Origin: an uncultured Methanoregulaceae archaeon | GTDB taxonomy: Archaea > Halobacteriota > Methanomicrobia > Methanomicrobiales > Methanospirillaceae | Reading direction: 5' to 3' | NCBI GenBank assembly: GCA_963701095.1 | Contig: OY969564.1 | Location: 1,984,001-2,048,000, forward strand | DNA: 64,000 nt | In this document: positions 13,947-28,209 of the stretch, in pieces | Numbering within the stretch: the stretch's first letter is position 1 | How the letters are laid out: each line of letters begins with the position of its first letter | Notes under the pieces: model-generated | Seen by the model: the letters and a program-made list of their open reading frames with translations, nothing else | Database searches by the model: none | What the model was told of the DNA's origin: nothing | Translations under genes and position numbers: made by a program

Positions 13947-14606
13947 TTATGGTGTTTCAGGTCTCTCTTTTAGATCCCGGATATATTCCAGCGCCGCAAT
14001 TGCATCTTCCCGTTTCTGATCAGCAGGGGTTTCTGTGACAAAAGCGAGGAACCGTTCTTTTGTCGCCGTATCAATTGCATCGCCGGCAACAGTCACGATT
14101 TTCTGGTAGGTACGTTGTGGATAAAAAACTGAACGTGCTGCGTCGAGCAGGATTTGGTGGACATCAGAAGAGATAACTCCGGCAGTCTCCGCATTTTTTA
14201 GTGTGCACCGGATATTGATGAGCGGCTCGGAGAGCGAATATCCTGAGACCGGATCGAAAACAAGTGCTACTTCGTCATCGGATGTGAGTGTGCCGTCTTT
14301 GTACATCTGGTAAATCTTTCCTATACCGGTCATACCCAGTGTATCCATCTCTGCAGCCCGAAGTGCGCCCATGCTCGATGCACCGATTACGGTTACCCCA
14401 TGTTTTACTGCAGCAAGGATCTCTCGATGTGCAACAGCAGCATCCTGATGGAAAACCCCGTCGATAAGACCGATGATCTTTGCACCGTCATGAATTGCCG
14501 CGAGGATATCGCTTCGCTTTGCAGGCAGCCGGTACTCTGCCGCGAGAATTTTTTGCGCAGATGCCAGATCAAGGCTTGGCCCGAGAAAAACGATGATTTT
14601 TTGCAT
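13947..14606 (-). CDS. tfuA: TfuA protein (MCR glycine thioamidation partner)
   Basis: VFLGPSL, LIDGVFHQ, GASSMGALRAAE, DDEVAL; coupled to ycaO. Confidence 0.92.
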   Translation of the reverse strand: MQKIIVFLGPSLDLASAQKILAAEYRLPAKRSDILAAIHDGAKIIGLIDGVFHQDAAVAHREILAAVKHGVTVIGASSMGALRAAEMDTLGMTGIGKIYQMYKDGTLTSDDEVALVFDPVSGYSLSEPLINIRCTLKNAETAGVISSDVHQILLDAARSVFYPQRTYQKIVTVAGDAIDTATKERFLAFVTETPADQKREDAIAALEYIRDLKERPETP

Positions 14607-15781
14607 GTCTGAGCCGCTCCCCTCGCCGTTCGGGATCCATTGCATAGACTTCGAGACCTGGAACGATCACCCTGACCACCGGTATCCCTATCTCCTCTCT
14701 GGTCAGGTCAACAACAATCACCCGGTCAAGTCCCTGTTTCCTGAGTGCATCAATCGCAAACCGGATATCCTGAGCGAAGTCATCGCTGTCATATGAACCG
14801 AGATTTTCATAATTGACGGTCCCATTATCCTTAAACCAGTACCCGTTGATCCGTTTGACCCGGTCGTACCCCATCTTTTTCCGGAGGTCTGCCGTTATTG
14901 TATCTTCCCGCGCACCATGGATCTGGGTAAGGCGGCTCTGTGCCACTTCAGTAAGGGCCCTCATGATCGCAATGCGGGCATTGGTATGGGTACCGATCCC
15001 GATCGTAAGCAGCGAGGGATCTTTGAGCAGTACATCATCGGAGACTGCAGCTGATTGTGGGAATGCCGATATCACTGGTAATATCCCGGACAATAACGTC
15101 GACTTTTGCATCAGTAAATTTCTTCTGCATTTCTGCAATCATGGGATCGTCGATCCCGGTCACTGCCGGTCCGGTATCCCGGGTAGCTTCAACAAGCGAC
15201 CAGGCATCCCGTTCAATAACTTCACAGAGTGCATGGAAGATTGCCTCTTCTCTTGTATTTCCTGACGCAAGACCGTTTGTCGAAGTCCGGAAAATTTGGC
15301 GGAAGTTCCGGGGAAGAGGATGGAAGACAGCCTGCGCAGGAACGAAGACCGGGATATCGTTTGCGATATCCCAGCCCTCGACCCAGGGGAGGACATGGCC
15401 GGGTTCGGTTTCTGAAGGGAGGATAAGATCCTTTGGATTGATCGCCGGTGCATTCCCGGCAAGCATTTCATAGGTGTCCAGTTGGATCTTGCGGTCGTGG
15501 ATCTCTGACGAATACCGTTCGATTCCTTCCATGATGCCGGAGATCCGTGATTCCTCGACTGTCGCTCCCTTCCCGTTATAGACCGTAATCGCCCCGTCAT
15601 CAGCGGTCGGCCGGATACAGGAGAAGACGGGAATGCCAATCCGATCGAGATTAGTAATATCTGCAACCCGGGTGATGCCGGCGACCGGGACTTTTGGTTC
15701 TATCCGCTCAAGGGTTTCTGCCAGCGGCACTGCCCGCTGGGTTTCGCGGTTATAGGTCTTTTTGCAGGGAGAAATGTGCAT
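14569..15781 (-). CDS. ycaO: YcaO thioamidation protein; split by a 1-nt frameshift near 15055
   Basis: GITRVADITNLDRIGIPV, GKG, EGIERYS, STNGLASGN, EVIERDA, then ALTEVAQSR and PVVRVIVPGLE in the next frame. Confidence 0.9.
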
Positions 15782-16321: not shown

Positions 16322-17287
16322 TCAGATCTGCCTGAGATTTCCGCGTTGTTTTACAAACCGGTCCCAGTTCCACGGTTCGTCAAGTACGTTTACCCTCACA
16401 TGCTCGATACCGCAGATCCCGAGTGCTTTTCGCTGCACCTGTCCGGAAAGGTGATCGGAGAGGGGGCAGGCTTTACAGGTAAGCACCATGTCGATCTCCA
16501 CGCTGGTGCCCTTTACCCGTATTTCTTTTATTAGTCCGAGGTCGACAATGTCTATGCCCACCTCAGGATCAATTACTTCCTTCAATGCATTCCGAATCTC
16601 GTTCTCGCAGACGATCTCCTGGCGGGCCGCAGGGGATATTGGGTTTGGCTGTGCCTGCTCGAACGTGCGGAGTCTCTCTTCAAGCTGGTTCTGCCGGTCC
16701 AGCAGCCGGCTGACCACGCGGAGCATGGGATCAGGCATAACTTCTTCGATTGTCTCGTCCGGCGATCCATGTTCCGGACCGGCGATCCTGCCCGGGACAC
16801 CGACAACCGTTGCGCCTGACGGGACGGACCTGACTACGACTGATCCGGCACCGACTTTCGCCCCCCTGCCTATACGGATGGGACCGAGGACGATAGATCC
16901 GGATCCAAGGATCACATCACCCTCTATAGTTGGGTGACGTTTCACGTTCTCGAGCGCTGTACCCCCAAGCACGACACCCATGTAGATGAGGACATCATTT
17001 CCAATCTCGGCTGTCTCTCCGATAACAACTCCCATACCATGATCGATAACCACCCGGCGGCCAATCACTGCACCGGGATGGATCTCAATCCCGGTAAGGA
17101 ACCTGCCTATATGGGAGACGAACCGGGCCCAGAATTTGAAGTTATGGATCCAGAGCCAGTGAGCCCTCCGGTGGATCCAGAGCGCATGAAGCCCTGGATA
17201 ACAGAAAAGGACTTCAGAGGTGGAGCGGGCAGCAGGGTCCTTGGAAAATATTGCCTGGATGTCTTCCCGGAGGCGGTCAAAAACCAT
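16322..17287 (-). CDS. cysE: Serine O-acetyltransferase fused to C-terminal DUF59 (SufT/MIP18-like) domain
   Basis: [34 protein letters not shown]-terminal [19 protein letters not shown]...LTCKACP...PW. Confidence 0.92.
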
Positions 17288-17298
17288 GGTAGTCTCAC

Positions 17299-18231
17299 TT
17301 ATTCCACAAACAGATCCGGGATACTTAAGTACCGTTCCCCGGTATCTGGCAGGATAACCACAATAAGCTTACCCTTGTTTTCCGGGCGTGATGCCACTTC
17401 AAGAGCGGCATAGGTCGCTGCGCCACTGGAGATCCCGGCAAGAATACCCTCCTCTTTAGCCAGTCTTCGTGTCGTTTCAAAGGCGTCCTCATTCTTAACA
17501 CGGATAATCTCGTCCACGAGCTCGCGTTTGAGTACTGCGGGGACGAAACCAGCACCGATACCTTGGATGCGGTGTGGGCCGGGAAACCCGCCGGAGAGCA
17601 CCGGTGAAGCATCAGGTTCGACGGCGATTGCGCGGAATGAGGGCTTTTTCTTCTTGATCACATCTGCAATACCGGTAATTGTTCCTCCGGTTCCCACGCC
17701 GGCCACGAGGATATCGACTTTTCCGTCGGTATCGCGCCAGATCTCCTCGGCAGTAGTCTTCCGGTGAATTGCCGGGTTTGCCAGGTTGTTAAACTGCTGG
17801 GGGATGTAAAAGTACTTCGGGTTCTCTGCTGCCATTTTCTCGGCTCTTGAGACAGCTCCCTTCATACCCTCCGCACCGGGTGTAAGAACCAGCTCTGCAC
17901 CGAATGCTTTTGCCAGTCTCCGCCTCTCGACACTCATGGTCTCCGGCATCACCAGCGTGAGTTTGTATCCCCGTGCAGCACTTACGAATGCAAGGGCGAT
18001 ACCGGTATTACCGCTTGTTGGTTCGAGGATGATCGTATCTTTTTTGATCAATCCTTGCTTTTCGGCCTCATCGAGCATCGCAACCCCGATACGGTCCTTG
18101 ACACTGCTCAGAGGGTTGAACGATTCAAGCTTTACAAAAACCGTTGCGCCAGAACCCTTACTCAGACGGTTCAGCCGTACAAGCGGCGTGTTGCCAATCG
18201 TTGCTGTAATATTTTCGTAGATCTTTGCCAT
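17299..18231 (-). CDS. cysK: Cysteine synthase A (O-acetylserine sulfhydrylase)
   Basis: [57 protein letters not shown]. Confidence 0.97.
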
Positions 18232-18285
18232 TCCGTTTCCCTTCCTGACTCTGGAATCTCCCTAGGATCTGGTGAGGTTCCGGAA

Positions 18286-18300
18286 GTTCACAATTGTTAA
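18286..18300. promoter_or_regulatory. Putative operator GTTCACAATTGTTAA upstream of cysK
   Basis: Near-palindrome 55 bp upstream of the cysK ATG, about 15 bp downstream of a minus-strand TATAATAA box (~18316-18323); identical 15-mer at 20911. Confidence 0.7.
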
Positions 18301-18989
18301 TTGTCCGGAGCCAGTTATTATACCTTGTTTTCCAGCAAAAACTGCATTCCTGATCAGGATTTATGAATAATACTCTTACGAAGATTGACATTTAGCGGCA
18401 AAATATGACGCAAAATCAGGATATAATACATCTCCCGCCTCATATTACGTGTTCACACCTCTGAACAGGAAGACAGTCATGAACACACACCGCGCGAATA
18501 CCGCTGGACTCTCATCAGGCCCGGATGCACCCCGGTCGTTGCCCGTGTCTTTTCCGGCATTGTACCGGTAAGACCTGTGGAACAGTTCACTCGTATCAGG
18601 GGCTCAGGGCAGTATTGTTGTCCCTTGGAGCTCGCTAGAACAGGTTCACCAGTGACTGCATTCCTCATAATCCGCGGAATACCTGCAGTCCTTGGTATGG
18701 GTCCGTGAGAATCAATCCTGATTTCATGTCCTCGACCTCAACCAAATAGGACCATATAGAAGCACCTCGGCTGTCAAGGTCGATATCACCAGCCGTAATA
18801 AAGCCTCATGCACCACAAACACACAAACTCCGATACCACACCCGGGAGATTTGTTAGTATTTCCAGGTGAAACGTAATTTTTTCCACCTATGTTTAGACT
18901 CAATCTAGATCTATTGCAGAAAAAGTGAATATCACGAAGAAGAGTAATCCAACCTGAATATATTCGGGAAACGAGTCCATTGAAAAAGG

Positions 18990-19062
18990 GCCGGTGTGGC
19001 AGAGCGGTTAATGCCTTCGCCTGCAAAGCGAATGCGTGGGGGTTCGACTCCCTCCGCCGGCG
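18990..19062 (+). tRNA. tRNA-Cys (GCA), A37 type, apparent G73 discriminator
   Basis: Acceptor GCCGGTG/CGCCGGC, D arm GCAG..GG..ATGC, anticodon stem TTCGC/GCGAA with loop CT-GCA-AA, T arm GGGGG-TTCGACT-CCCTC. Confidence 0.88.
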
Positions 19063-19082
19063 TAAAAATGAGGATCACTGCC

Positions 19083-20343
19083 ATGGAACTGTACAGTACA
19101 TTATCAAGAACTGTTGAACCGTTTGCGACACTTCATCCGGACAGGGTGACGCTCTTTGTTTGCGGTCCGACAGTATACGATTATTCACATCTTGGTCATG
19201 CCCGGACCTATGTTGTCTTTGACGTCCTTACAAAATATCTTAGGTTGACGGGTAAAGAGGTGTTCTATCTCCAGAATATAACAGACGTCGATGACAAAAT
19301 CATCTACCGTGCAAAGGAAGAAGGGCTGTCCCAGAGCCTTCTGGCTAGGAAGTTTGAGACCGAGTACCTCCGAGACATGCGTTCCCTTGGGATTGATGCT
19401 GTTAGTTATTATGCCCGGGCCACAACTCACATCCCCGAGATAATCAACCAGGTGAAACGGTTGGTCGATCGGAATGTAGCATACGTCACCGAAACCGGAG
19501 TCTACTTCAATCTCGACTCGTTTAGACACAACGGGGAACTTTCAGGACAGGAACGGGCAAAGCGTGTCAGCCGCGTTAACGATTCGACAAAGCACAATCC
19601 CTTGGATTTTGCGCTCTGGAAACTGGGTGAATTCGGGGAATATACTTGGGACTCCCCATGGGGGCGGGGACGACCAGGCTGGCATATCGAGGACACAGTG
19701 TATCTCAGAGAAGTACTTCGGGCAGCAGTACGATATTCATGGGGGGGGATTAGATCTGATATTCCCTCATCATGAGGCAGAGATCGCGCAGATGGAGTCT
19801 CTGGAAGGAAAGCACCCGATGGTGAGATACTGGCTGCACACGGGTTTCCTCACGGTAAAAGGTGAGAAAATGTCCAAATCCCTCGGGAACTTTATCACGA
19901 TCAGGAACGCCCTCAAAACATGGAATAAGGATATACTCCGGTATTACTTTTTGCTCTCCCACTACCGGTCCCCACTTCAGGCAACTGACGAAGGTTTTGC
20001 TAACGCCGCCCGAGGTCTCGATCATATACGGGCTGTTGCAACTAAAGATAAAGGAGCGGACGCGAAGGGAAGGAGAGCCTTTATCGACGCTATGGAGTCT
20101 GATCTCAATACACCTATGGCCCTTGCTGCAATCCAGGCACTTGCGGTGAGTAGAGATCTTGAGGCGTTGCGCGAGTACGGAGAGATCCTCGGGATCAATT
20201 TTCTCCGCGAGACCAGTGCCCCCCTCAGTGTTCTTCAGGATATCCGGGCAGAACTACGGGCGAAAAAACAGTTTGGTATAGCAGATTTGATCCGTCAACG
20301 AATGGTAGCTGCGGGAATACCAATTACTGATGGACCACTCTGA
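19083..20343 (+). CDS. cysS: Cysteinyl-tRNA synthetase; 1-nt frameshift near 19700
   Basis: CGPTVY..HLGHAR, NITDVDDKII, DFALWK, PWGRGRPGWHIE; then DIHGGGLDLIFPHHEAE, KMSKS, AD.IR anticodon-binding motif in the next frame. Confidence 0.93.
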
Positions 20344-20594
20344 TTGGGTTCCCCCTTTCATCAGCTTTTTGGAATCCGGAACTGCGAAATGCTCCCGAGA
20401 TTACACATATACTTAAACGCTCAATGGTGTTGCCAAAGTTCACATACGGGCGGGGAATTAAATTCATTCCTTTACCGGGAACGTGAAAGATTCAGTGAGG
20501 AGGAAAATAAAAAAATCGCGGGGGAAACAGTGGGTAACAGGTTCACCACTGCCTTAGGAAATAGAGGAACGTGCATGTAGAGGCATAGGACACA

Positions 20595-20848
20595 TCATGC
20601 AGTAACCGCCTCTTCCAGCGGCTTGGTGTTCAGGCCGTACAGACTCTGCCTTGCATCGATGAAATAATAATGTTCAATCAAGAACTTTTCATCTTTGAGC
20701 CTGTTCAATGCATACCGCACAGTTCGGGACGGCAGGGCGGTCTCACGGATGAGATCCTTCTGCGTCAGCTGACCATTCGTTTCCAATACTTTATACACGA
20801 GCTTTGCCGATGGCGGCAGGTGCCTGATCCGTGCGAATGATCCTCCAT
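20595..20848 (-). CDS. Small winged-helix (MarR/TrmB-like) transcriptional regulator; probable frameshift just after the ATG
   Basis: LPPSAKLVYKVLETNGQLTQKDLIRETALPSRTVRYALNRL...DARQSLY; ATG at 20848 is one base out of frame. Confidence 0.82.
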
Positions 20849-20910
20849 TCGCGCTTACATTATTTTCGACAAAAACGATCCCTCATAGTGGATCACCATA
20901 GAACGTAAGA

Positions 20911-20925
20911 GTTCACAATTGTTAA
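20911..20925. promoter_or_regulatory. Putative operator GTTCACAATTGTTAA upstream of HTH regulator (autoregulation site)
   Basis: Exact copy of the 15-mer at 18286; overlaps a minus-strand TATA-like GAAAGACTTAA. Confidence 0.7.
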
Positions 20926-21465
20926 GTCTTTCGTTTCAGGACCCATTCGTTCGATGCATTCAAACTTCATTTTCATGAAAGACACATATCAAAAAATAAA
21001 GGTATATCTGCTTTTTAAAGCAGGAAAAAGCCATATTCTCCCCCGAATAATCTCACCGGGAGAATATCCGATCTTTATCCTTTTCTGTGACACCGATCCC
21101 AGTGTCTCAAAATAGAGTACCAGATCCGGATCTTACTGATAAACCATGGCGTAGAAATCAGGGTATTGATTCCCATGCGTTCAATTTCCGGGAGAAGATC
21201 TTCCCATTCACAAAAAACAAGACGAGATTTTATCACGCATGAAGAGCGTGAAAGCCCATAACCGGAAAGAGAGTGAAGTTTCCCAGCCATATTGCTTGGA
21301 GAACCTTCCGGCGCTCATAACAGATTCCGACAAGGCAATTTTATGTTGATAATGATAGTACGGTGTTTGTATCTTCAGTTTAATGAGATCCCGATGATAA
21401 TGCTGATCTGAGAAACATTTTCTGGTTTTTCCAGAAATTTCCCATTAAAGTGGAGTAGATCAATT

Positions 21466-22329
21466 ATGACATCCCAAGAAAAGGATGAACACATCCTGGA
21501 AGCTGTTGGACGGTCCCGGATTGTCATCCGGAACGGAACCATTGTGGAAATTGGAGAAGCAAAGATTACGGAATGCCCGCTGGCCAAACGTTTTGCGTAT
21601 CCTGTCCCCCGGATCACACAAGAAGCAGTAAAAGCTAACATCGAGCACCGGATGAAAGCATTCGGCATGTGCACATCCCGGAGAGACGTACTTGATATGC
21701 GCGAATTCGTAGGGTTCGGTGCCACAGAGTTGCTTGGTTTCGCATCACATGTGGGTTTGATCGATGCGGCTGTACTCGCGTGTGACGGTGCCGGGACAGT
21801 CATTGTGAGAAAACCCGCCCTTATCCAGGGAGTCGGCGGAAGGATGTCCGGGCTTATCTCTACGAGCCCTATCAAAGAGGTTATTCAACGCATCGAAGAA
21901 AGTGGCGGTATTGTTGTGGATAAAACCCACGCAGCACTCGATCAGTTTAGCGGTGTAAAACGAGCTTACCAAGAAGGCTTCAAAAAAGTGGCTGTTACTG
22001 TAGCAAGACCTGAAGTCGCAGTGCGTATTCACCAGGAATACCCTAATACCATCATCTTTGGTGTCCATGTCACAGGTCTCACCGAAGAGGAGACAGAAGC
22101 AATGGTGGGAGTTGCGGATCTTATGACTGCATGTGCCTCTAAAACCGTGCGACAGATAGCAGGTGCTAAGGCACTTCTTCAAGCAGGAGTTTCCGTTCCT
22201 ATATTTGCCCTAACAAAGCGAGGAAAAGAAATCATTATTGAAAAGATTCGTCAAACGGAAGAACAGGTTCTGATAAAACCTACAAAGCTTCCGGCTCTTG
22301 GCGAAAAACAGCCCGACCCGCTGGTCTGA
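21466..22329 (+). CDS. Methanogenesis marker protein 8 (DUF2099)
   Basis: DEHILEAVG, CPL, FGMCT..R, FVGFGATE, CDGAGTV, QGVGGRMSGL..TSPI, TACASK. Confidence 0.88.
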   Translation: MTSQEKDEHILEAVGRSRIVIRNGTIVEIGEAKITECPLAKRFAYPVPRITQEAVKANIEHRMKAFGMCTSRRDVLDMREFVGFGATELLGFASHVGLIDAAVLACDGAGTVIVRKPALIQGVGGRMSGLISTSPIKEVIQRIEESGGIVVDKTHAALDQFSGVKRAYQEGFKKVAVTVARPEVAVRIHQEYPNTIIFGVHVTGLTEEETEAMVGVADLMTACASKTVRQIAGAKALLQAGVSVPIFALTKRGKEIIIEKIRQTEEQVLIKPTKLPALGEKQPDPLV

Positions 22330-22662
22330 AATAATGAGATATTTTTTTTTAATTTGATGTTTTTAGTTTTTGAGATCCTCTATTTTTGCAAATTCAGACA
22401 TGCCAGTGATGAGGAATTGTCTCGAAAATAAAATACCGGTGACTTATCTGCATGATTGTGTTGAGGTCCTGTTGATGCTAAGAACCGAGAAAGTGACGGA
22501 TCACTTTAAGCCGTCTGTTGAAGAAGGATCCGGCCTTTGTTTTATTACTCCAGATAATAAATCATACGCGCCCAATATATCTTAACTGTATTCAAAATCC
22601 GGCCTCAAAAACACAGTTTTAGGTCTGTAATTCAGATCAGGAAAAAGTCGCCGAATACAGAA

Positions 22663-22715
22663 CTTATAAATAATCACGATTGTTATCTATTATGGTCGTA
22701 TTCACAATTGTGAAT
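22663..22715 (+). promoter_or_regulatory. TATA box (CTTATAAA) followed by degenerate ATCACGATTGTTAT and perfect palindrome ATTCACAATTGTGAAT
   Basis: TATA 22663-22670; sites at 22673-22686 and 22700-22715, the latter 8 bp before the tRNA-Cys 5' end. Confidence 0.75.
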
Positions 22716-22723
22716 GTGGCTAT

Positions 22724-22795
22724 GCCAAGGTGGCGGAGTGGCTACGCGGCTGACTGCAGATCAGCTACAACCCGGTTCGAATCCGGGCCTTGGCT
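22724..22795 (+). tRNA. tRNA-Cys (GCA), G37 and U73 (canonical methanogen type)
   Basis: GCCAAGG/CCTTGGC acceptor, GCTGA-CTGCAGA-TCAGC anticodon arm, CCCGG-TTCGAAT-CCGGG T arm. Confidence 0.96.
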
Positions 22796-22808
22796 TCGAG
22801 GTGTTCCC

Positions 22809-25570
<2,762 letters not shown>

Positions 25571-25573
25571 AGT

Positions 25574-27055
25574 ATGAATATGCTCCGTGGCTCTCTAGGC
25601 ATTGTCAGGACAGAACACGCAGACCTCTCCGGTTCACTCACCCTTGAAAGCGGAGAAGTGCTCTCCAACCTGACAATAGCCTATGAAACCTACGGCAAGC
25701 TCAACAAAGAAAAAAGCAACGCTATCCTTATCTGCCATGCTTTATCCGGGGACGCCCATATAGCCGGGTTTCACGAAGGGGACGACAAGCCCGGCTGGTG
25801 GGACACTGTTGTCGGGCCCGGTAAGGCATTTGATACGGATCGCTATTTTGTGATCTGCAGCAATGTTCTGGGAGGATGTAAAGGCTCAACCGGCCCTTCT
25901 TCAGTCAATACGGAGACCGGCAAACCTTTTGGTACAAGGTTCCCGGTCATTACCATCAGGGACATGGTCAACGCCCAGAAACTTCTTCTTGACTATCTCG
26001 GCATTACCGAATTGTATGCTGTAGTCGGGGGATCAATGGGAGGCATGCAGGCTCTCCAGTGGACGGTATCGTATCCGGACATGATAAAAAAGGCAATCGT
26101 TATTGCCGCGACCGGATACTCGACTCCCCAGCAGATTGCCTTTAACGAGGTTGGCAGGAAAGCCATTATCTCCGACCCTGACTGGAATAACGGGAACTAT
26201 TACGGCAAACGAGTTCCCACACACGGTCTAGCGTTGGCACGGATGGTGGGCCATATCACGTACCTCTCTGATGAATCAATGCATGCAAAGTTCGGGAGGG
26301 CACTCCAGGGAAAGGACCATGTCGGGTTTGATTTCTCGACTGAGTTTGCCGTAGAAAGTTACCTCCACCACCAGGGGGATACATTCACAAAACGGTTCGA
26401 TGCAAATTCGTATCTGTATATTACAAAAGCGATCGATTACTTCGACCTTACAAAGGATGGCTCGCTCGCGACCGGGCTCTCTGCCGTGAAAGCGTCTTTT
26501 TTCATTCTTTCAGTCTCGTCGGACTGGCTCTATCCTCCCTATCAGTCGCAGGAAATTGTGACAGCACTTACCGCTAATGAACGCGAGGTGCATTACTGCG
26601 AGATCCGTTCGAACTACGGTCATGATGCGTTCCTGCTCGAATCAGGTCAGCTCAATTACCTGATTACCCGGTTCCTGTCGCATACCGTTGTCGGGGACGT
26701 GATGACCCGGGAGGTCGAATGCATCGAAGAGGGTACCACAATCGCGGTAACTGCCCGGAGAATGATCAAGTGCAGTGTCAACCACCTGCCGGTTCTTTCC
26801 GCTACCGGCCAGCTCGTAGGAATCGTTACCTCGTGGGATATCGCAAAGGCAGTGGCGTCCAATTTTCTCTGGCTCGACGAGATCATGAGCCGGGATGTGG
26901 TTACGACAACCAAGAAGGAGCCCGTTGAGGAGGCGGCTAGGAAAATGGAGGACCATTCAATCTCTGCCCTGCCCGTTGTCGACAACGACCGGCACGTTAT
27001 AGGCCTTATCACGAGCGATGCGATCAGTACTCTCGTCGGGAGACAAACACCGTGA
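25574..27055 (+). CDS. metX: Homoserine O-acetyltransferase with C-terminal CBS pair
   Basis: [19 protein letters not shown] nucleophile elbow, FDANSY, YGHDAFL; tandem CBS domains at C-terminus. Confidence 0.95.
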
Positions 27056-27096
27056 AAATCCCCACTAATCAGGAAGAACCAGGGACAAACGTGAAC

Positions 27097-28209
27097 ATGG
27101 CAAAAAAGTGGTTGGTCCGGTACTCGGAGATATTCTTAAAATCAGATCCGGTACGCCGGCAATGGGAACGGGTCCTGATAAACAACATCCGGCAGCTTAT
27201 ACCCGATTTGAAGATCAAAAGTGAACGCGGCAGAATATGGATCACCGGGAATCTCGATCCCGAAAAACTTAGGCATGTATTTGGGATCGTTTCATTCTCA
27301 GAAGTCGAACATGTACCCCATGATTTACCGCTGGAAACAGCACTTATTGAATATTGCAGGACACACGGTCTTCCCGGCGCGAAGACATTTGCACTGCGCA
27401 TCAAAAGGGTAGGAAAACACAGTTTTTCCTCGAACGATAAGGCGATCGAACTTGGCGATGTAGTCCGGAAAGCATTCCCTCACCTGAAGGTGAACCTTGC
27501 TGTCCCAGACGTTGAAATCCATATTGAAATCCGGCAGGATGAATGTTATCTCTACGATAAAGTGATAAAAGGGTCCGGCGGTCTTCCTCTTGGGGTAGAG
27601 GGAACGCTTGTTGCACTTGTCTCGGGAGGCATCGATTCCCCGGTTGCGGCATGGATGATGATGAAACGGGGCTGCAGGATCGTGCCGATCTATGTGGCGC
27701 TCGATACCTTCCTTGACGAAACCGTCTTGACCCGGGCCGAACGGGTAGTTGAAGTGTTACGGAAGTACCAGCCCGACATCCGGCTCCGGGTGATACATGA
27801 CACCTACCTAGCGGCAGCAAAAAAGGAGCTGATCAGAAACCGGCAGGAGAAGTATACCTGCATCTTTTGCAAACGCCGGATGTACCGGATTGCGCAGGCT
27901 GTTGCACAAGAAATAGGGGCAAAAGGTATCGTGAACGGTGAGTCGCTTGGACAGGTAGCAAGCCAGACCCTCGACAATCTGGTGGTCCTCTCAGATGCCG
28001 CAGAGATCCCGGTTTATCGTCCCCTCATCGGGTTTGACAAGGCAGATGCGATAGCAATCGCCCGGGATATCGGAACCTACGAAGAGTCAACAAGTAAAGC
28101 TACCGGCTGCAAGGCTGTGCCAAAGGGACCATCCACGAAAGCTCACCTGAAGGAGATCCTTGAGATGGAAAAGAATATGGAAGCGACGAAAATACCACTA
28201 CCTGTGTGA
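27097..28209 (+). CDS. thiI: tRNA 4-thiouridine sulfurtransferase (THUMP + PP-loop, no rhodanese domain)
   Basis: VRYSEIFLKS, GGLPLG, SGGIDSPVA, CIFCKRRM, GESLGQVASQTL, RPLIGFDK. Confidence 0.93.
   Translation: MAKKWLVRYSEIFLKSDPVRRQWERVLINNIRQLIPDLKIKSERGRIWITGNLDPEKLRHVFGIVSFSEVEHVPHDLPLETALIEYCRTHGLPGAKTFALRIKRVGKHSFSSNDKAIELGDVVRKAFPHLKVNLAVPDVEIHIEIRQDECYLYDKVIKGSGGLPLGVEGTLVALVSGGIDSPVAAWMMMKRGCRIVPIYVALDTFLDETVLTRAERVVEVLRKYQPDIRLRVIHDTYLAAAKKELIRNRQEKYTCIFCKRRMYRIAQAVAQEIGAKGIVNGESLGQVASQTLDNLVVLSDAAEIPVYRPLIGFDKADAIAIARDIGTYEESTSKATGCKAVPKGPSTKAHLKEILEMEKNMEATKIPLPV

Follow-up and report, generated by a model that had tools for sequence, protein, structure and literature searches.

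A conserved promoter palindrome of sulfur and iron-sulfur supply genes in methanogens, its probable regulator HTH113, and a candidate +1 frameshift in a winged-helix gene of the same regulon

Results

The palindrome and the genes behind it

The window analyzed here is a stretch of 64,000 nucleotides, bases 1,984,001-2,048,000 of a single 2.63 Mb contig from an uncultured Methanoregulaceae archaeon, and this study concerns a 14-base palindrome, TTMACAATTGTKAA, that stands at the promoters of its cysteine genes, together with the protein that probably reads it. One unit on the minus strand, cysK-cysE, encodes synthesis of free cysteine. An operon on the plus strand opens with a tRNA-Cys gene and continues with O-phosphoseryl-tRNA:Cys-tRNA synthase (SepCysS), two homocysteine enzymes, and a tRNA sulfurtransferase, and a small winged-helix gene lies between the two units. 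The features are listed below, with copies of the palindrome given as putative operators and scored with the position weight matrix (PWM) described further on.

16322..17287, minus strand: cysE (serine O-acetyltransferase) with a C-terminal FeS_assembly_P/SufT-like domain (profile searches)
17299..18231, minus strand: cysK (cysteine synthase A), first gene of the cysK-cysE unit (PF00291; TIGR01139, 466.9 bits against a cut-off of 351)
18287..18300, no strand: putative operator of the cysK-cysE promoter, TTCACAATTGTTAA (pattern and PWM scans; same site upstream of cysK in relatives)
20598..20882, minus strand: winged-helix (HTH_24) open frame of 95 codons, at +1 relative to an upstream open reading frame (uORF)
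20912..20925, no strand: putative operator of the winged-helix promoter (scans; kept upstream of winged-helix orthologs)
22664..22671, plus strand: TATA-like box TTATAAAT of the tRNA-Cys-SepCysS promoter (read from sequence)
22674..22687, no strand: degenerate putative operator of the tRNA-Cys-SepCysS promoter (PWM score 16.9 bits, rank 6 in the genome)
22701..22714, no strand: perfect palindromic putative operator, 9 bp before the mature 5' end of tRNA-Cys
22724..22795, plus strand: tRNA-Cys (GCA) with G37, first gene of the operon (tRNA scan)
22809..24173, plus strand: SepCysS (TIGR02539, 389.8 bits against a cut-off of 365)
24176..25570, plus strand: O-acetylhomoserine sulfhydrylase, metY (profile searches)
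25574..27055, plus strand: homoserine O-acetyltransferase MetX with a C-terminal CBS pair (profile searches)
27052..28209, plus strand: ThiI, tRNA 4-thiouridine sulfurtransferase, whose start overlaps the metX stop (profile searches)

The sequence GTTCACAATTGTTAA is present both at 18286-18300 and at 20911-20925, and the perfect palindrome ATTCACAATTGTGAAT occupies 22700-22715, with the degenerate copy ATCACGATTGTTAT directly 3' of the TATA-like box. An earlier sequence-only reading of this stretch had placed copies of the element at these promoters and described them as intergenic; the sequence bears out both points, and profile searches confirm the identities that it had given to cysK, cysE, SepCysS, metY, MetX, ThiI, and the winged-helix gene. 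Relatives share the fusion of cysE to a SufT-like domain, as does a genome from outside the order.

In terms of abundance, the window holds seven matches with at most two mismatches on both strands, against 0.95 expected, and a count of seven was reached in 0 of 100 shuffles. Across the whole genome, a search with TTCACAATTGTGAA allowing one mismatch returns only four positions, where our own arithmetic gives about 0.4; three lie inside the window, the fourth is at 2,121,908, and all four sites are at promoters of sulfur genes. A PWM was built from six sites, the four strong ones and two degenerate partners, and the genome was scanned for hits of at least 11 bits. The four strong sites score 22.6-23.7 bits and the next match, at 18.2 bits, falls within coding sequence, a clear gap; the two degenerate partners rank 6 and 8 among the 84 hits. 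Weaker hits near genes for a PEGA protein, CbiX, a solute-binding protein, a response regulator, a pilin, and others have no sulfur link and were not counted.

The strong sites are all intergenic and lie at or beside a TATA-like box or the expected transcription start. The cysK site lies between the TATA-like TATAATAA on the minus strand, which is about 19 bp upstream of it, and the cysK ATG 56 bp downstream, a spacing at which it covers the expected transcription start. The copy before the winged-helix gene ends 29 bp upstream of the open frame and overlaps the likely TATA box and transcription factor B recognition element region. At the tRNA-Cys-SepCysS promoter, the degenerate and perfect copies are 27 bp apart from center to center. 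The promoter at the fourth genomic site, that of the cysteine desulfurase gene iscS, repeats this layout of TATA box, weak site, and strong site, with a degenerate copy directly after its TATA-like box and the identical 27-bp spacing. A separate imperfect palindrome, TGTTCACACCTCTGAACA, is present at 18450-18467; it looks like a decayed operator site because the closest relative has a one-mismatch operator, TTCACAATGGTGAA, at the same place.

Conservation of the element at sulfur gene promoters

The element was followed through 31 related genomes that represent six families of one order, with the present genome included. A site with at most one mismatch is found in 25 of the 31, and the reversed control pattern occurs zero to one time per genome. 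In 20 neighborhoods taken from relatives, sites stand upstream of cysK-cysE, SepCysS-metY-metX-thiI, iscS-iscU with HTH113 (a small helix-turn-helix (HTH) protein described below), and the winged-helix gene, and also upstream of nadA, a radical-SAM protein, a NuoD-like hydrogenase subunit, ThiF/MoeB, pdxS, a TauE-type exporter, a CDGSH protein with a divergent TrmB regulator, and an Mrp/ApbC-like protein identified by its sequence only, with no profile scan. The placement before tRNA genes is especially regular: in 12 scanned loci, 10 of the 13 tRNA-Cys genes have a site that ends 7-15 bp before the tRNA, compared with 9 bp here.

The same arrangement extends beyond the order. Five genomes of the category "same phylum" have sites before tRNA-Cys-SepCysS-metY, tRNA-Cys-metY-metX, cysK-cysE, iscSU, and nadA, and further sites before genes for Thi4, ThiM, ThiF, TusA, and a DsrE-like protein with a cysteine desulfurase. 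Although the flanks have diverged, sites keep their position at orthologous promoters, both from family to family and in genomes beyond the order. The palindrome is a genuine promoter element, and a conserved one. The proposal that a shared control element joins the synthesis of free cysteine, tRNA-dependent cysteine (including the tRNA-Cys gene), and homocysteine with tRNA thiolation is upheld by its conservation at these promoters, as is the expectation that footprinting would find the motif before orthologous cysK, SepCysS, and winged-helix genes. The regulon is wider than these pathways, taking in iscSU, nadA, thiamine, and sulfur-relay genes, and reaches beyond the order.

In one genome outside the order, three tandem variants of the element (TTCACAATAGTGAA, TTCACAATAGTGAA, and TTCACAATAGTGAC, at 15-bp spacing) lie at L148 2579-2622 (G177:C1:723078-723121), between a winged-helix ortholog and a divergent TusA sulfurtransferase gene.

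HTH113, the probable regulator

The fourth strong site of the genome lies outside the window, between iscS-iscU, which encode a NifS-type cysteine desulfurase and a NifU-type scaffold, and a divergent gene that we call HTH113.

G000:C1:2121522-2121863, divergent from iscS-iscU, outside the window: HTH113, a 113-residue XRE-like HTH protein with four conserved cysteines

Its neighbors encode TtuA, FdhD, a LarE-like sulfur transferase, ThiF, a ThiS/MoaD-like protein, and MoaE. Downstream of iscU, the ThiF/MoeB gene (L001 7127-7540; G000:C1 about 2124126-2124539) matches only the C-terminal half of its family profile, which may be another frame break in the assembly.

HTH113 scores 20.5 bits against HTH_3 (PF01381), below the cut-off of 23, and HTH_3 is matched by 63 of 80 members of the HTH113 family at E ≤ 0.001 (best 2.4e-08). 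No NCBIfam model matched HTH113 or the winged-helix protein. Rrf2 was absent from the Pfam hits of HTH113 at E ≤ 0.01 and from NCBIfam, and likewise from the 25 families listed of the 35 that are matched by the 80 members. Public records label close relatives "transcriptional regulator [Methanoregula sp.]," and the family comprises 992 representative clusters at E ≤ 0.001. A search of solved structures by sequence gave no relative of HTH113 or of the winged-helix protein, and structure matches to HTH113 are weak, being to XRE, HigA, ClgR, and DeoR-type HTH proteins (Foldseek E ≥ 0.2; VIA Z ≤ 6.7).

The AlphaFold model of HTH113 is confident (predicted local distance difference test score 87.9) and has five helices, with C6 at the start of helix 1 and a CxxC motif in helix 5. 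In an alignment of 80 sequences, C6, C88, and C91 (the CxxC pair) are near-invariant, conserved at 90% or more; P5, P15, S47, Y49, K53, R54, G55, and A72 are also conserved, and a fourth cysteine near residue 102 is kept in orthologs. We favor an iron-sulfur (Fe-S) cluster or sulfur-status sensor as the role of this Cys4 site because of the regulon content and the linkage to iscSU, although the four cysteines could instead form a structural zinc site or a thiol switch. In two long relatives the unit is duplicated in tandem, and such two-unit forms fit with action as a dimer. A fusion of HTH113 to the winged-helix type was considered and discarded, as the HTH_24 hits in HTH113 relatives overlap the same HTH and the long forms are the tandem duplications.

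The phylogenetic distribution of HTH113 follows that of the element. Among the 31 related genomes, 26 have an HTH113 ortholog, and the five without one hold 0, 0, 1, 0, and 0 sites. Co-occurrence was also counted in 151 genomes of the order, 150 of them at least 90% complete plus the window's own at 86%, with orthologs called at E ≤ 1e-28 and sites at no more than one mismatch:

With HTH113 ortholog, 86 genomes: at least 2 sites in 52, 1 site in 10, 0 sites in 24; 282 sites in total
Without HTH113 ortholog, 65 genomes: at least 2 sites in 2, 1 site in 9, 0 sites in 54; 13 sites in total

Outside the order, HTH113 orthologs of 57-68% identity are found in the "same phylum" genomes with the palindrome just upstream, beside iscS or cysK, and in family f7 all 28 genomes have an HTH113-like match, most at ortholog level.

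The HTH113 gene itself is preceded by the element. At 47 of 49 ortholog loci, a site with at most two mismatches lies within 250 bp upstream; the two exceptions are a locus that lacks upstream DNA and one with a three-mismatch site. At most HTH113 loci of the order, the site ends 42-45 bp before the start. The recognition helix also varies together with the site. Of 43 listed loci with the helix APSAVSQY[LIMV], one is siteless and the sites of the rest are C-type or mixed, none being A-type only, and all six loci with a changed helix (four TP..IS.YRT and two TPASVSQYTS) have only the A-type palindrome TTAACAATTGTTAA. This covariation of helix and operator is suggestive. HTH113 combines a site in its own promoter, co-occurrence with the element, and covariation with it, as looked for in an autoregulated repressor with a palindromic operator, and its binding to the palindrome is predicted on this basis. 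The regulator is probably HTH113 and not the winged-helix protein.

Several findings weigh against this assignment. Related genomes are not independent, so the association in the 151-genome set is overstated; 24 of the 86 genomes with an ortholog have no site at one mismatch, several of the "0-site" genomes carrying the A-type variant TTAACAATTGTTAA that the strict pattern misses; and two genomes without an ortholog (G078 and G080) hold two sites each. The covariation comes from two protein lineages only, and winged-helix orthologs likewise carry an upstream site, which makes them a possible second binder.

Other readings of the element and its regulator

The palindrome might be no regulator site at all but a repeat that arose by chance, a piece of promoter that was duplicated, or a repetitive element. 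In favor of this, the similarity between the iscS and SepCysS promoters extends past the 14 bases, and the core of the motif contains the short palindrome CAATTG. However, no shuffle reached the observed count, the reversed control gave zero to one match per genome in the 31 genomes, and sites stay in place at orthologous promoters from family to family and beyond the order, with diverged flanks; we regard this reading as scarcely credible. The sequence-only reading had taken the winged-helix protein, an HTH of about 85 residues, for the repressor of the regulon, one that binds the palindrome and also represses its own gene. That protein does have a DNA-binding HTH_24 domain, its gene sits in the middle of the target cluster, and the element is in its own promoter both here and in orthologs, which preserves the part of the autoregulation claim that concerns the site and leaves the regulator role unsupported. 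True orthologs of the winged-helix protein (at least 59% identity) occur in only 7 of the 31 related genomes against 25 with the motif, the other matches there being a paralog that is 38-50% identical. In two genomes that are 98-99% complete (G019 and G024), the winged-helix family profile finds nothing at E ≤ 0.01, whereas these genomes hold four and three sites and an HTH113 ortholog; outside the order, in family f7, the winged helix is present in 11 of 28 genomes against HTH113-like matches in all 28. HTH113 tracks the motif far better, and a winged-helix master repressor is improbable.

A reading in which both proteins act is less easily set aside, although we still consider it unlikely: HTH113 would be the general repressor, and the winged-helix protein, made only under cysteine shortage, would be a co-regulator or anti-repressor acting at the sites or on HTH113. 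The palindrome stands in the promoters of both genes, and every examined relative with both families has an adjacent paralog pair of one winged-helix-like and one HTH113-like gene. In this genome (G000:C1:1402589-1403109; L113 4581-5131), the genes of the pair overlap by four bases, and the pair has an operator-like element of its own, GTTAAC-N3-GTTAAC (near L113 4555-4575), between its TATA box and ATG; by reading of 19 upstream regions, this element is clear in 16 and altered in three. These pairs suggest that the two protein types work together, and an adjacent pair with its own element leaves room for a co-regulator role for the winged-helix protein of the window. The motif and the regulon nevertheless persist in genomes that have no member of the winged-helix family.

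A candidate +1 frameshift at the winged-helix gene

The winged-helix protein matches HTH_24 (PF13412) at 26.9 bits, above the cut-off of 21.9, and its matches to MarR_2 and TFIIE_alpha fall below their cut-offs. A stop codon immediately precedes its reading frame, in which the GTG at 20798 is the first ATG, GTG, or TTG codon; a start at this GTG would delete the first helix. A perfect Shine-Dalgarno sequence and an ATG are present in another frame.

20890..20897, minus strand: Shine-Dalgarno sequence GGTGATCC, complementary to the 16S rRNA 3' end (found in the genome), 3 bases before the uORF ATG
20860..20886, minus strand: uORF M-R-D-R-F-C-R-K, eight codons and a stop, containing the candidate +1 frameshift site

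The uORF ATG overlaps the stop that precedes the winged-helix frame and is one base out of register with that frame. Within the uORF, the putative slippery site consists of TTT at 20872-20874 followed by T at 20871, and the zero-frame codon TGT at 20869-20871 specifies Cys.

This arrangement was compared in 29 copies of winged-helix orthologs from 28 loci in families f1, f5, f7, f14, and f29. The Shine-Dalgarno sequence, the ATG, and a uORF of M-R/S-D-R-F/L-C with the main frame at +1 are present in all 29. The P-site codon is TTT in 24 and CTT in five, with T next in all; the zero-frame codon that follows is Cys in every copy (TGT in 20, TGC in nine), and the next codon in the +1 frame is Val or Ala. 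The uORF tail varies from 0 to 24 codons after this conserved segment, with one longer N-terminal variant and one copy without a stop in the 90 bases read. A 19-nucleotide block has 1.81 bits per base, compared with 0.41-0.54 in its flanks, and includes synonymous positions of the main frame, where ATC and TTT are frozen in 29 of 29 copies as read from the printed sequences. In 19 of the 29 there is no in-frame start before the first helix. The full signature occurs once in this genome, and in haloarchaeal homologs it is absent, with ordinary starts in its place. As in prfB, a slippery P-site that is able to re-pair at +1 is followed by a downstream frame that is not normally reachable, and the signal is conserved at the nucleotide level. 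We read the winged-helix gene as a regulon member with a candidate +1 frameshift that would sense Cys-tRNA.

The competing view is that the winged-helix protein is made without a frameshift, from a non-canonical GGG or ATC start, from the GTG available in some orthologs, or from the internal GTG at 20798, the conserved ATG block being a leader peptide or some other DNA or RNA element. Some evidence goes against the frameshift. GTG is the first in-frame codon in three of the 29 copies, so a normal start is possible there; a main frame that encodes Phe-Val or Phe-Ala by itself entails the Cys codon; the conserved main-frame Gly-Ile-Val-Phe-Val could itself be under protein-level selection; and a 2021 review, in the part of it available, lists for archaeal cellular genes one -1 case and no demonstrated +1 case. 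Set against this are the 19 copies with no ATG, GTG, or TTG anywhere from the upstream stop to the first helix, the loss of that conserved helix if translation began at 20798, a Shine-Dalgarno spacing that suits the out-of-frame ATG and not the main frame, and the frozen synonymous positions. On balance, translation by an ordinary or unusual start, and with it a separate function for the ATG block, appears somewhat doubtful.

Other features of the window

The window has two tRNA-Cys genes, at 18990-19062 before cysS (A37) and at 22724-22795 before SepCysS (G37), and an Rfam scan of 18000-23000 returned these two tRNAs only. The two genes differ over much of their sequence and at position 37. 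The A37/G37 pair may be a sign that each route, the direct and the tRNA-dependent one, has an isoacceptor of its own. As the sequence-only reading had noted, no site precedes tRNA-Cys(A37)-cysS in this genome; the closest relative has one 183 bp upstream of its cysS tRNA, within some 290 bp of sequence that this genome lacks. The cysS gene (window 18990-20343) is split into overlapping frames at 18996-19775 and 19564-20343, with the break near 19690-19700, which may reflect gene decay in the strain or an assembly indel (completeness 86%).

21466-22329: methanogenesis marker 8 (DUF2099), between the winged-helix gene and the tRNA-Cys operon (profile searches)

In a relative (G004), the marker 8 gene follows a second tRNA-Cys gene that is preceded by the operator, and it may be a regulon member there. 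The YcaO gene for thioamidation of methyl-coenzyme M reductase (window 13947-15781) appears to be split as well, into frames at 15035-15781 and 14569-15138, and is followed by TfuA at 13947-14645.

Discussion

Taken together, these data are consistent with the notion that the palindrome is the operator of an HTH113 regulon for sulfur and Fe-S supply, widespread among methanogens of this phylum, with the +1 frameshift of the winged-helix gene as an attached proposal, and we put the probability of this reading at roughly 0.7. HTH113 would bind the operator as a dimer and repress by blocking the pre-initiation complex; repression, as opposed to activation, is suggested because the sites fall in the interval from the TATA box to the start or on the start itself; at the SepCysS and iscS promoters, the TATA box is followed by the weak site, and the strong site overlies the start. 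In this genome, the targets would be cysK-cysE, tRNA-Cys-SepCysS-metY-metX-thiI, iscS-iscU together with HTH113, and the winged-helix gene; the divergent HTH113 gene, with the operator in its own promoter, would be self-regulated. The Cys4 site may hold an Fe-S cluster or otherwise sense sulfur status, such that repression would lift when supply runs short, as with IscR or SufR. In the second part of the proposal, a ribosome pausing at the Cys codon of the uORF would slip by +1 on UUU-U (or CUU-U) into the winged-helix frame, and the winged-helix protein, a member of the regulon and not its master regulator, would be made only when Cys-tRNA(Cys) is scarce. That these are two coupled devices reading the cysteine and sulfur status of the methanogen, a Cys4 XRE-like repressor that keeps the cysteine, tRNA-Cys/SepCysS, homocysteine, Fe-S assembly, thiamine-sulfur, and NAD genes under one palindromic operator and a six-codon M-R-D-R-F-C leader whose +1 slip yields a winged-helix regulator, is a more tentative idea, to which we give slightly less than even odds.

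IscR of Escherichia coli, a [2Fe-2S] repressor of the Rrf2 family, controls iscRSUA. HTH113 resembles it in being small, cysteine-bearing, and encoded beside iscSU, in having a palindrome in the promoter that it shares with iscSU, and in a regulon of Fe-S supply. The likeness in sensing logic, in which the cluster-loaded form represses, is a proposal for HTH113, its cluster being inferred. Unlike IscR, HTH113 has no Rrf2 domain, matches the XRE-type HTH_3 weakly, has a different helical layout, and is transcribed divergently instead of as the first gene of the operon, and its regulon adds cysteine, homocysteine, thiamine, and NAD genes and a tRNA gene.

Cysteine metabolism has master regulators in bacteria, namely CymR of Bacillus subtilis, an Rrf2 protein with CysK as co-repressor, and CysB of enteric bacteria, a LysR protein. 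As in those systems, one regulator would coordinate cysteine synthesis with other genes of sulfur assimilation; the proteins belong to different families, however, and profile scans of HTH113 reveal no sequence relation. We know of no control by CymR or CysB of a tRNA gene or of tRNA-dependent cysteine synthesis. Among archaea, SurR of Pyrococcus furiosus is a two-domain winged-helix protein with a CxxC switch that controls hydrogenase and sulfur-reduction genes in response to elemental sulfur. HTH113 would likewise be an archaeal HTH regulator with a CxxC motif, proposed to respond to sulfur chemistry as SurR does, but the two-domain SurR has a different site.

The candidate frameshift has precedents in the +1 frameshift of prfB (release factor 2) in bacteria and in the "hungry codon" +1 frameshift of Ty1 in yeast. 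In common with these, it has a slippery CUU or UUU followed by U, a Shine-Dalgarno-like stretch shortly upstream, and a frame that is otherwise unreachable; slow decoding of the zero-frame A-site codon, the further feature of those sites, would depend here on the supply of Cys-tRNA. The putative pause codon differs, being a Cys sense codon in place of a stop or a rare Arg codon, which would make Cys-tRNA(Cys) the sensed signal; the shift would moreover take place at codon 5 of a tiny uORF, yield a DNA-binding product, and occur in an archaeal host. In bacteria, leader-peptide attenuation and the T-box control amino-acid operons. As in leader-peptide attenuation, codons for the regulated amino acid in a short leader would read the charged tRNA, but no terminator or antiterminator and no tRNA-binding leader RNA was seen (the Rfam scan of 18000-23000 gave tRNAs only), and the output would be a change of reading frame in place of transcription termination.

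The sequence-only reading had known of no sulfur regulon of this kind in methanogens, and our literature searches agree. Queries on the motif, on regulators of iscSU, SepCysS, and sulfur in methanogens, and on the number of the likely Methanosarcina gene returned no description, and the exact 14-mer and its shorter cores gave nothing on archaea. A study of the Methanosarcina ISC system describes iscS2U2 as clustered with methionine and NAD biosynthesis genes in many Methanomicrobia and, in the portion available, names no regulator (PMC7585200). The accessible part of a 2021 survey of methanogen iron and sulfur pathways does not contain the words transcriptional regulator, regulon, repressor, or IscR, and term searches of the text obtained for PMC13066941, PMC8351635, and PMC12192291 found no archaeal regulator of these systems. 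The recently described archaeal regulator family AmzR was considered and is, by its abstract, unrelated.

Methanogens need much sulfur and many Fe-S clusters, and the regulation of this supply is not covered in the literature checked. The present analysis supplies a testable regulator, an operator, and a target list. Among the targets is a tRNA gene that would be under the control of a transcription factor and is coupled to the tRNA-dependent synthesis of cysteine. The carriers of HTH113 and its site outside the order may include the tractable Methanosarcina, and if so, knock-out tests would be possible. For annotation, the winged-helix gene family is likely to be mis-started or missed. The frameshift, if true, would add a new kind of amino-acid sensor and, for archaeal cellular genes, a first programmed +1 frameshift that senses an amino acid; it would be wired to the very regulon from which tRNA-Cys and the enzyme for cysteine synthesis on this tRNA are supplied.

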